64,000 nucleotides of DNA from Trueperaceae bacterium (lineage in GTDB: Bacteria > Deinococcota > Deinococci > Deinococcales > Trueperaceae): positions 1,024,001 to 1,088,000 of the forward strand of contig OZ243927.1 in NCBI GenBank assembly GCA_965213925.1. Reading direction: 5' to 3'. The notes under the pieces are model-generated. The model did no database searches. It was not told the DNA's origin and saw nothing but the letters and a program-made list of their open reading frames with translations. The position numbers were made by a program, and so were the translations under genes. How positions within the stretch are numbered: position 1 is the stretch's first letter; every line of letters starts with the position of its first letter. Shown one piece after another: positions 17,096 through 18,202 of the stretch.

Positions 17096-17570
17096 TAGCG
17101 TTACCTAAAAATTTACGTGCCCGGCTGAAAATAGGTGAGCGAATGTTATCGCATCCGCAGTTTCGCACATTTTGCTGGCTAAGCGCTCGAGAAGGCACAA
17201 AGCGCAACGTTAATATTATTCCTAGTTCGCTCTATATTCGGCTTACCGACTTGAGACGTGGCAAATCACTACGCCAGAGCCAAAATGTAATTAGTATCAC
17301 AGCGTATGCGCGTACTTGTTTCAACTATTGAAATGATTTCCACAAACAGCATCAACCTATCTTCAAAAATAAAAAGATGAGAGCCGTTCGCGCGTTGAAA
17401 AACCCTTAATGTTCGTTCAGAACGAATAAGAAGAATTTCACGCACTATTAAAAAAGCTTCTATGAGTTTCTAGTGTGCCTGATATCACTTGTTCTCATGG
17501 TTGTGAGAATTTCACCTCTAAGTATTTCAATACCCATGATACGTTGTCTTTCGAGGTTGATAAGCCTCAT

Positions 17571-17713
17571 CGGAAGCGACGACTTCTGCCCCGCAAGGAG
17601 CCTTTAGCTATCATGCCGTTATCAAACGCGCTGGCTCGATGACCAGATGCTACCTGCTGCTAAAGGCTCTTCTGGGCGCTTGGGACAGAAGAAGCTAGTA
17701 GCGCAACCGGCCG
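17571..17713 (+). ncRNA. c-di-GMP-II riboswitch with a large insertion in the L3 loop
   Basis: CGG-AAGC-GACGA-CTTCTGCCC..[81 nt]..TGGGCGCTT-GGGACAGAAG-AA-GCT-AGTAGCGCAACCGGCCG. Matches the class-II pattern (..UGGGCACUU..GUUAGUAGUGCAACCGACCG, recalled consensus) with compensatory changes in P2 (AGC/GCT) and the pseudoknot (GCGCT/AGCGC). Confidence 0.85.
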
Positions 17714-17782
17714 GGAAACTCTTCCGGACAACTTGAAAAGCTTCGGAAAACCGGAGCACGCCATATCAGGGAGGATATGAAA

Positions 17783-17914
17783 ATGAAAAAGTCACTTATT
17801 AAAGCGTTGGTTCTTACTCTTACTCTTACTGCGTTTGGTACGGTCTCGACGGCGAGCGCCGCCAAAGGCTCGGACAAGGCTCCGTCAGTTCAGAAGTTTA
17901 GAGTCAACCGCTAA
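17783..17914 (+). CDS. Small secreted peptide 1, 43 aa: MKKSLIKALVLTLTLTAFGTVSTASA|AKGSDKAPSVQKFRVNR
   Basis: GGGAGG RBS 8 nt upstream (alternative in-frame ATG at 17777); Sec signal with an A-S-A site; paralog downstream; own terminator. Confidence 0.88.
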   Translation: MKKSLIKALVLTLTLTAFGTVSTASAAKGSDKAPSVQKFRVNR

Positions 17915-17933
17915 AGGTTAAAAGTTCACCAAT

Positions 17934-17969
17934 AAGCTCCTCTACAAAGATGTAGAGGAGCTTTCTTTT
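17934..17969 (+). terminator. Intrinsic terminator of peptide 1
   Basis: Perfect 13-bp stem AAGCTCCTCTACA/TGTAGAGGAGCTT followed by TCTTTT. Confidence 0.88.
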
Positions 17970-18004
17970 GCCTATTTTTCGCTGTGAAGTTTTCCACATT
18001 GTAG

Positions 18005-18034
18005 TTGACGCTTCAAAGGTGAGCAGGTTAAACT
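18005..18034 (+). promoter_or_regulatory. Sigma70-type promoter of peptide 2
   Basis: TTGACG-N18-TAAACT, between terminator 1 and the peptide 2 RBS. Confidence 0.6.
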
Positions 18035-18076
18035 CGCTTGTCTGCAGACGAAATTTAGGGATAAAAGAGGGTGAAC

Positions 18077-18202
18077 ATGAAGAAACTCACAAGCCTAACG
18101 CTCGTTTTGGTACTAGCTATCTGTGGTTTATCTGTAGCGTCTGCTGGCTCCTCCACTTCGGATGGTGAACCGTCGGTTCAGAAGTACAGAGTCAACCGCT
18201 AA
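18077..18202 (+). CDS. Small secreted peptide 2, 41 aa: MKKLTSLTLVLVLAICGLSVASA|GSSTSDGEPSVQKYRVNR
   Basis: AAGAGGGTG RBS; Sec signal with an A-S-A site; last 10 aa match peptide 1 at 9/10 positions. Confidence 0.88.
   Translation: MKKLTSLTLVLVLAICGLSVASAGSSTSDGEPSVQKYRVNR

Follow-up and report, generated by a model that had tools for sequence, protein, structure and literature searches.

The 64,000-nucleotide window analysed here, a stretch of contig OZ243927.1 from a Trueperaceae bacterium, contains two short, unannotated paralogous genes, P1 and P2, whose immediate neighbours are a gene for a cupin/HD-GYP phosphodiesterase of cyclic di-GMP (c-di-GMP) and aroQ. The leader of P1 resembles the aptamers of class II c-di-GMP riboswitches (c-di-GMP-II), and the subject of this work is the relation between the two peptide genes, this leader and the enzyme gene (Table 1). 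The genome of the window (4.75 Mb, 58% G+C) is denoted G000, G001 and G002 are two sister genomes of the same genus, and L numbers designate individual loci. AroC, which is encoded in the window, is 72–95% identical to proteins of Trueperaceae, Truepera and Deinococcales-type genomes, to which 54 of the 80 rows among the matches listed belong; the other 26 rows comprise Nitrospirota and Nitrospinota at 50–54% and one Gemmatimonadaceae at 73%.

The translations of P1 and P2 share an MKK start, a hydrophobic run, the motif ASA, a polar spacer and the tail PSVQKFRVNR (P1) or PSVQKYRVNR (P2). Signal peptides, export and cleavage sites were throughout predicted by reading translations, and cleavage is predicted between ...STASA and AKGSDKAPSVQKFRVNR in P1 and between ...SVASA and GSSTSDGEPSVQKYRVNR in P2. 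The ATG of P1 is preceded at a distance of 8 nt by the ribosome-binding site GGGAGGA (17769–17775) and that of P2 at 4 nt by GAGGGTG (18067–18073), while an ATG at 17777 offers an alternative upstream start that would extend the P1 precursor to 45 amino acids (aa). Each gene is followed by an intrinsic-terminator-like hairpin, and no further gene was found between P1 or P2 and its own terminator. The P1/P2 region contains three such hairpins against 2.3 expected, a count that is not significant when taken alone; both hairpins are retained in G001 and G002, with changes on both stem arms. The final 33 nt of P1 and P2 are identical at 30 positions, the three differences residing in TCA/TCG and TTT/TAC. 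An earlier reading of the same DNA (the original prediction) had described two unannotated paralogous open reading frames (ORFs) with this layout, individual ribosome-binding sites and terminators, and near-identical 3′ ends, and the description was confirmed on each of these points. Searches of Pfam and NCBIfam with the peptides found no family and returned weak signal-peptide-like matches only. Judged from their sequences, P1 and P2 are genuine genes whose products are precursors of the Sec type, and Sec export and cleavage after ASA would be the expected fate of these. The net charge, read from the translations, is about +4 for P1 and for a third paralogue in G000, P3 (locus L003), and only about +1 for P2. 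The sequence LAIC in P2 was also considered as a lipoprotein motif; this was rejected because neither P1 nor P3 has the Cys and an Ile in position −1 is unusual.

Table 1. Features of the P1/P2 locus (window coordinates)
Feature	Position	Strand	Remarks
Gene for cytoplasmic cupin/HD-GYP c-di-GMP phosphodiesterase, 307 aa	16172..17095	+	upstream partner in the cassette
c-di-GMP-II-type riboswitch aptamer, variant	17563..17722	+	large insertion in inner hairpin loop
Extra hairpin in aptamer loop	17597..17670	+	74 nt; arms GGAGCCTTTAGC and GCTAAAGGCTCT, paired in the fold
Expression platform	17711..17775	+	hairpin CCGGGAAACTCTTCCGG, second hairpin 17740–17757, ribosome-binding site 17769–17775; conserved in sister genomes
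P1, gene for 43-aa precursor	17783..17914	+	predicted exported peptide AKGSDKAPSVQKFRVNR, 17 aa
Intrinsic-terminator-like hairpin after P1	17934..17963	+	13 pairs, then T-rich tail
P2 promoter region	17983..18034	+	CRP/FNR-like palindrome TGTGAAGTTTTCCACA, then TTGACG, 18 nt, TAAACT
P2, gene for 41-aa precursor	18077..18202	+	predicted exported peptide GSSTSDGEPSVQKYRVNR, 18 aa; aptamer absent upstream
Intrinsic-terminator-like hairpin after P2	18221..18250	+	12 pairs, 8 of them G-C; faces convergent aroQ

The leader of P1 was compared with the two Rfam models of the c-di-GMP-II clan (CL00127), RF01786 and the GAG variant model RF03169, for which the curated cut-offs are 53.5 and 40 bits, respectively. 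The full RF03169 model matched at 17563–17720 with 28.2 bits (E 0.025), the loop of the inner hairpin being enlarged by an 85-nt insertion, and RF01786 matched the 3′ half with 21.7 bits. The corresponding leader of P3 is a canonical aptamer with a score of 69.1 bits against the cut-off of 53.5, and other paralogous or orthologous leaders reach 47.5 (L108), 43.8 (L109) and 30.9 bits (L106). The lower scores accompany a hairpin of variable length inserted at a single loop site: in the leaders of G001, G002 and P3 the length of the insertion varies and its site is constant. Moreover, where the RF03169 model has GCGAGACCG, the leader has GCGCAACCG, like the RF01786 main family. Because of the P3 leader score, the scores of the orthologous leaders, the single insertion site and this main-family-like position, the homology of the window leader to c-di-GMP-II aptamers is convincing.

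As in RF01786 riboswitches, the leader has the 5′ core GGAAGCGA, the 3′ core AGUAGCGCAACCGGCC and a loop element, UGGGCGCUU, that is able to pair with AGCGC of the 3′ core, and all three are conserved in the leaders of G000, G001 and P3; the aptamer core is retained in G002 as well. Unlike them, the window copy carries the 74-nt extra loop hairpin and two internal-loop changes, and its cargo is one 43-codon gene. The extra hairpin lies directly 5′ of the element TGGGCGCTT (17673–17681), which is able to pair with AGCGC at 17699–17703. The aptamer is of interest in itself as a test case for the tolerance of class II aptamers towards a large loop insertion. Downstream, the hairpin CCGGGAAACTCTTCCGG of the expression platform overlaps the 3′ strand of aptamer helix P1, and no terminator was found in the leader before the start codon of the P1 gene; the leaders of L209 and L210 have a terminator-like hairpin ahead of the ribosome-binding site. 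A c-di-GMP-II-type riboswitch, expected to respond to this ligand, would have P1 as its one cargo. A separate ORF, 17475–17642, spans the promoter and aptamer region, and in a relative with an insertion-free aptamer the public gene call joins this ORF in frame to the peptide gene (P0052, 121 aa), a fusion that is probably an annotation artefact.

The gene upstream of the leader encodes an enzyme with HD and GYP motifs, as read in its translation, and with Pfam matches to HD_5 (97.4 bits), HD (58.7 bits) and, weakly, Cupin_2. Its AlphaFold2 model has a predicted local distance difference test score (pLDDT) of 86.2. In Foldseek searches the model matched the HD-GYP structures 4mcw, 4r8z and 9rbz with E values from 1e-14 to 1e-10, and the N-terminal domain matched the cupins TM1459 and ectoine synthase; the template modelling score (TM, target) was 0.64–0.74 across the HD-GYP and cupin matches. 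Neither a signal peptide nor a membrane segment is present in the 307 residues.

Four such paralogous enzymes, the window copy included, are encoded in G000, and three of them are flanked by proteins or peptides that bear a tail of the P1/P2 kind, one of these being a decayed peptide gene. In the window the aptamer, P1 and P2 come after the enzyme gene, and at the second paralogue the order is repeated, the enzyme gene being followed by the riboswitch aptamer and P3. The third paralogue belongs to an operon headed by a c-di-GMP-II aptamer and the gene for a 750-aa lipoprotein; behind the paralogue comes the gene for a lipoprotein of 118 aa (106 aa from the second ATG) that ends in CIPVDPFRFNN, and nearby there is a decayed gene for a further type of peptide paralogue (P4 type), intact in G001 with the end PVTNPFRFDN. 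The P4-type remnant, in locus L204 (G000:C1:4016187-4016593), is frameshifted, ends in ...TRFDN and lies antisense between the genes for the 750-aa lipoprotein and the third cupin/HD-GYP enzyme. A tail-bearing neighbour was not found at the fourth paralogue.

The cassette is shared by both sister genomes and by four further genera of the Trueperaceae, and the enzyme was detected at E ≤ 1e-40 in 25 of 61 genomes of the family. In the sister family one of 61 genomes matched at this threshold, in the HD-GYP part only, and the cupin/HD-GYP architecture was not found there. Among 24 enzyme loci of other genera, seven have a short signal-peptide ORF adjoining the enzyme gene, which in five (L209, L210, L211, L215 and L221) lies downstream on the same strand; the tails of these five are LFEFNR (twice), VSVQKFEVNK, VAKFWPSK and the differing GGGYGTDG. 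Directly upstream of the short ORFs of L215 (64.9 bits), L210 (64.4), L221 (63.1) and L209 (57.5), that is, in 4 of the 17 loci scanned, aptamers score above the cut-off. At ten of the 24 loci an exported protein of about 93–106 aa is encoded instead or in addition (L234 belongs to both groups), with an end of the form [I/V/L]P[V/I]DP[F/L/I]x[F/Y]S/N-x. In combination, these comparisons identify the succession of cupin/HD-GYP gene, riboswitch and peptide gene as a conserved cassette, the function of its parts being predicted. The short ORFs of the remaining two of the seven loci contain internal repeats, NGFTVT twice in L235 (2953-3093) and PVTNPFRFS twice in L234 (908-777).

Outside the phylum the closest full-length relatives of the enzyme are found in Firmicutes, where a class I c-di-GMP riboswitch occurs nearby in 4 of 10 scanned cupin/HD-GYP loci, each time preceding a gene for an exported protein of 101–169 aa that adjoins the enzyme gene. 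In the Chloroflexi loci L014 (3131-3286) and L017 (3126-3302), small ORFs that encode a signal peptide and a GTAWTD motif lie just downstream of an HD-GYP homologue.

A profile built from the three peptide copies of G000 gave full-length matches, among 41 related genomes, only in the genus of the window (three in G000, three and one weaker in G001, three in G002), yielding ten family members across the three genomes; outside the genus it matched the signal-peptide part only. A word-indexed search of 5.8 billion proteins retrieved 11 sequences at E ≤ 0.01 among 179 candidates, all of 40–57 aa, and a HMMER profile returned 14 matches from 1.84 billion representative proteins. Of these, 12 are of family size, five of them present already in the earlier search, and the remaining two are long repetitive proteins (871 and 1054 aa) in which 8–11 stretches match part of the profile only. 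As far as these sequence searches extend, the peptides form a small and rare family found only in Trueperaceae-like genomes, and even without the link to the enzyme they constitute a previously unannotated gene family.

Within this family the C-terminal end is the best-kept part. The last five residues have a pairwise identity of 0.54 among 19 aligned members, while the signal region reaches 0.43 and the spacer 0.22, which supports the proposed layout of signal peptide, divergent spacer and conserved C-terminal core, and the nonsynonymous-to-synonymous ratio (pN/pS) lies at 0.13–0.69 in nine of nine ortholog pairs. The original prediction had named in advance a tail lacking selective conservation, as in a neutral duplication, as the outcome that would speak against it; the tail was instead found to be selectively conserved, and the search for further genomic copies that it had called for brought P3 to light. 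A C-terminal fragment is a plausible active part of the peptides, and this part is presumably the conserved free C-terminal pentapeptide [F/Y]-[R/K/E]-[V/F]-N-[R/K/C]. At the nucleotide level the tail codons AGA GTC AAC (17905-17913 in P1) are almost invariant across nine genes of the genus, and AGA occurs in the tail of nine of nine, compared with 6.4% of the Arg codons in long ORFs of G000. At the last codon the single change CGC to TGC makes the peptides alternate between a terminal Arg and a terminal Cys, as noted for P1 of G001 (L109 3563-3565), P1 and P2 of G002 (L110), P0005 and P0052; a terminal Cys could permit disulfide dimers.

The tail also connects the short peptides with the exported proteins of about 100 aa. 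When both groups are aligned from the right, position −4 is aromatic in both, position −2 is V/F and position −1 is N/S/D, and two peptides form bridges between the groups: the P4-type peptide ending in PVTNPFRFDN, and the L234 peptide with its two PVTNPFRFS repeats, which adjoins a 106-aa protein ending in PVDPFRFNE. The ~100-aa family is in turn homologous to a Paenibacillus protein encoded behind a c-di-GMP-I riboswitch beside a cupin/HD-GYP gene (hhalign, 95.9%), and the same applies to the 93-aa form (98.9%). Structure prediction was of little help here, as the AlphaFold2 model of the 106-aa partner is poor (pLDDT 56.2) and the look-alikes in the ESM Atlas all fell below 0.9, none of them being usable. 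On the grounds of the short common motif and the shared genomic context, the short peptides are probably minimal versions of the tail of the ~100-aa family.

The interpretation that we favour, and consider likely, is that these are exported, tail-bearing peptides, with P1 under a c-di-GMP-II riboswitch, and that they serve as cassette-tied outputs of c-di-GMP signalling. Cleavage at ASA would release exported peptides of 17–18 residues. With P1 as the sole cargo of the riboswitch, the cellular level of c-di-GMP would set its synthesis, and the conservation of the cassette suggests that the peptides are most likely extracytoplasmic outputs of c-di-GMP signalling, functionally tied to and co-inherited with a feedback phosphodiesterase. 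The tail would probably act on a partner as a minimal version of the end of the ~100-aa family.

A number of results weigh against this interpretation. The aptamer of the window scores below both Rfam cut-offs, its internal loop reads GACGA/GAAG where the consensus is GAUGA/GGAG, and the orthologous leader of G002 is the weakest of all (15.6 bits, E 1.2). Rfam scans did not find an aptamer upstream of P2, of the P4-type peptides or of L211. Thermodynamic folding made no choice between an ON and an OFF switch: in the P3 leader the ribosome-binding site is largely paired with the 5′ strand of aptamer helix P1 when folded freely, and with the aptamer enforced it is still largely paired, with UCCCGGA. 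Neither a peptide nor a ~100-aa partner was found in the flanks examined at 8 of the 24 loci in other genera. Furthermore, the signal peptides were assigned by eye, the tail motif is short enough for the likeness to the ~100-aa family to have arisen by convergence, and the near-invariance of AGA GTC AAC could reflect a constraint that acts on the RNA instead of the peptide.

A bolder extension of the output model is that the pentapeptide of the riboswitch-gated peptide is sensed by the cupin of the upstream enzyme, via re-uptake or a relay. The repeated pairing of enzyme and peptide fits such sensing, which we nevertheless hold to be unlikely; a complex prediction for the cupin/HD-GYP enzyme and the peptide precursor gave a score of 0.01 and a mark of 0.32, which speaks neither for nor against it. 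Each paralogous cassette would then act as a private channel from the cell population to c-di-GMP turnover, and the ancestral ligands would be represented by the exported ~100-aa partners of other lineages. If the peptide or its tail indeed addresses the enzyme, peptide signalling would be joined to the turnover of a second messenger, and a cupin sensor domain would have been assigned a ligand.

The known systems that come closest to this idea are the RRNPP cassettes of Firmicutes (Rap-Phr, PlcR-PapR and NprR-NprX), in which a Sec-type precursor of about 40 aa has its conserved part at the C terminus, the pro-peptide gene lies just downstream of the gene for a cytoplasmic partner, and several paralogous cassettes occur per genome. 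The locus described here resembles them in precursor layout, in the order of enzyme and peptide and in the existence of paralogous cassettes; it differs in that the partner is a cupin/HD-GYP phosphodiesterase, no TPR receptor is present, the host belongs to the Trueperaceae and a riboswitch precedes the peptide gene. The original prediction had likened the layout of the peptides to that of Phr/PapR-type precursors of this class while noting that no HTH-TPR receptor is adjacent. The latter point holds, since the neighbours are the cupin/HD-GYP gene and aroQ, in which Pfam detects neither TPR nor HTH, and membership of the class fails because the receptor is absent and the lineage is a different one (Trueperaceae rather than Firmicutes, with AroC identities of 72–95%). 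As a whole, therefore, the original prediction stood with respect to layout, tail conservation and the missing receptor, whereas its RRNPP/Firmicutes frame did not, and it had overlooked what are now the strongest clues to function, namely the c-di-GMP-II-type aptamer upstream of P1 and the repeated cupin/HD-GYP cassette.

A mechanism that works in the manner of Rap-Phr, in which the whole exported peptide or its C-terminal fragment accumulates outside the cell, is re-imported and binds the cupin of the enzyme, so that cell density tunes the breakdown of c-di-GMP, appears unlikely, albeit less so than the alternatives discussed below. It would supply the pheromone idea of the original prediction with a specific receptor. 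The precursor layout and the order of an enzyme gene followed by a pro-peptide gene on the same strand are those of Rap-Phr cassettes, the pairing of enzyme and peptide is repeated among the paralogous cassettes and across five genera, and the cupin that forms the enzyme's N-terminal domain is a fold that often binds small ligands. G000 also encodes an exported S8 subtilase, a possible processor of the pro-peptides, behind a weak c-di-GMP-II-type match. Conversely, besides the missing RRNPP/TPR receptor and a lineage outside Firmicutes, many genera have a ~100-aa partner with a well-conserved body, in some cases a lipoprotein, which is unlike a mere pro-peptide; no importer is linked to the cassette, and shared regulation could likewise account for the adjacency of the genes.

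Direct action of the products on competitors or on the biofilm matrix, as cationic antimicrobial or matrix peptides, is improbable. The charge of about +4 in P1 and P3 and the surface or matrix-type proteins that make up the rest of the c-di-GMP-II regulon would be in line with it; P2, however, does not exceed about +1, the peptides lack amphipathic character and are short and polar, what is conserved is the last five residues rather than charge or a hydrophobic pattern, and neither immunity nor export genes are present nearby. Still less probable is that the transcripts work as riboswitch-controlled small RNAs in which the ORFs are incidental or secondary. Such transcripts would be short and terminator-ended, as these are, and the preference for AGA GTC AAC described above would be accounted for, but pN/pS is below 1 in every ortholog pair, and in other genera the reading frame, the signal-peptide pattern and the ribosome-binding site are kept despite different nucleotides and tails (FEFNR, FEVNK). 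Equally improbable, the peptide genes could be decaying remnants of ~100-aa partner genes that have lost their middle and are held briefly by neutral duplication, as the common tail and the visible decay of the P4-type member in G000 might suggest, which is at odds with the purifying selection on ortholog pairs, the retention of aptamer, ribosome-binding site and terminator, and the occurrence of multiple copies in several genera.

The preferred reading, that of cassette-tied c-di-GMP outputs, has limited precedent. Riboswitches for c-di-GMP are mostly familiar as controllers of adhesins, pili and flagella. What is new here is a predicted exported peptide family, controlled by a class II riboswitch, in Deinococcota and paired with a cupin/HD-GYP gene; full-text literature searches found no description of the peptide family or of the cassette of enzyme, riboswitch and peptide. 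Small periplasmic regulators of c-di-GMP or biofilm signalling are known, among them YfiR. DbfQ is reportedly another (PMC12714742). The present peptides resemble both in being small exported products encoded beside the signalling gene to which they are tied; YfiR and DbfQ are folded and act on membrane sensors with periplasmic domains, whereas here a short peptide is combined with a neighbouring enzyme that is not a membrane protein.

Tiny-protein cargo of c-di-GMP riboswitches has been reported in one Firmicute, Clostridioides difficile, as the CD1980.2 family (PMC13724677, 2026). The report describes proteins of 58 aa with a C-terminal hydrophobic helix that are membrane-associated, promote sporulation, are controlled by class I OFF switches and reportedly have no homologues outside C. 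difficile. Like them, the present peptides are multicopy, tiny, previously unannotated cargo of a c-di-GMP riboswitch, some paralogues being riboswitch-free. The same description sets them apart by the class II riboswitch, the N-terminal hydrophobic segment and the polar product of 17–18 aa, and further by the conserved C-terminal pentapeptide, the Deinococcota host and the pairing with a cupin/HD-GYP gene.

Use of c-di-GMP-II aptamers is widespread in Trueperaceae, with at least one in 32 of 41 genomes and eight matches above the cut-off in G000. The other c-di-GMP-II aptamers of G000 all lie ahead of genes for exported proteins, the cargoes comprising GH115_C-domain lipoproteins, one protein each of the BACON/Ig-like, beta-helix and CAP+PKD kinds, and two secreted products (166 and 190 aa) that belong to no family. 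The S8 subtilase gene mentioned above (L121, G000:C1:3669679-3671110) stands behind a match of 36.7 bits, and its product could process exported pro-peptides. Short peptides as a general cargo of c-di-GMP-II aptamers were ruled out: beyond G000, the 29 loci with the highest RF01786 scores include only one with an evident short ORF for a signal peptide (L264, the same place as L215). The aptamers are often arranged in tandem, 130–250 nt apart, before a single secreted-protein gene, for instance at G000:C1:3695764-3696087, an arrangement common to many genomes of the Trueperaceae.

As a tandem duplicate, P2 lacks an aptamer and has a promoter of its own. In its promoter region the palindrome TGTGAAGTTTTCCACA and the −35 hexamer are conserved in the three genomes of the genus, and the −10 region is deleted in G001. 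CRP/FNR-like sites of this kind occur exactly twice in the 64-kb window against 0.75 expected, a number that was reached in 15 of 100 shuffles. One is the palindrome itself, at 17983-17998 and 6 nt upstream of P2's −35 hexamer, and the other, with one mismatch, is located at 17286-17301, upstream of the P1 leader.

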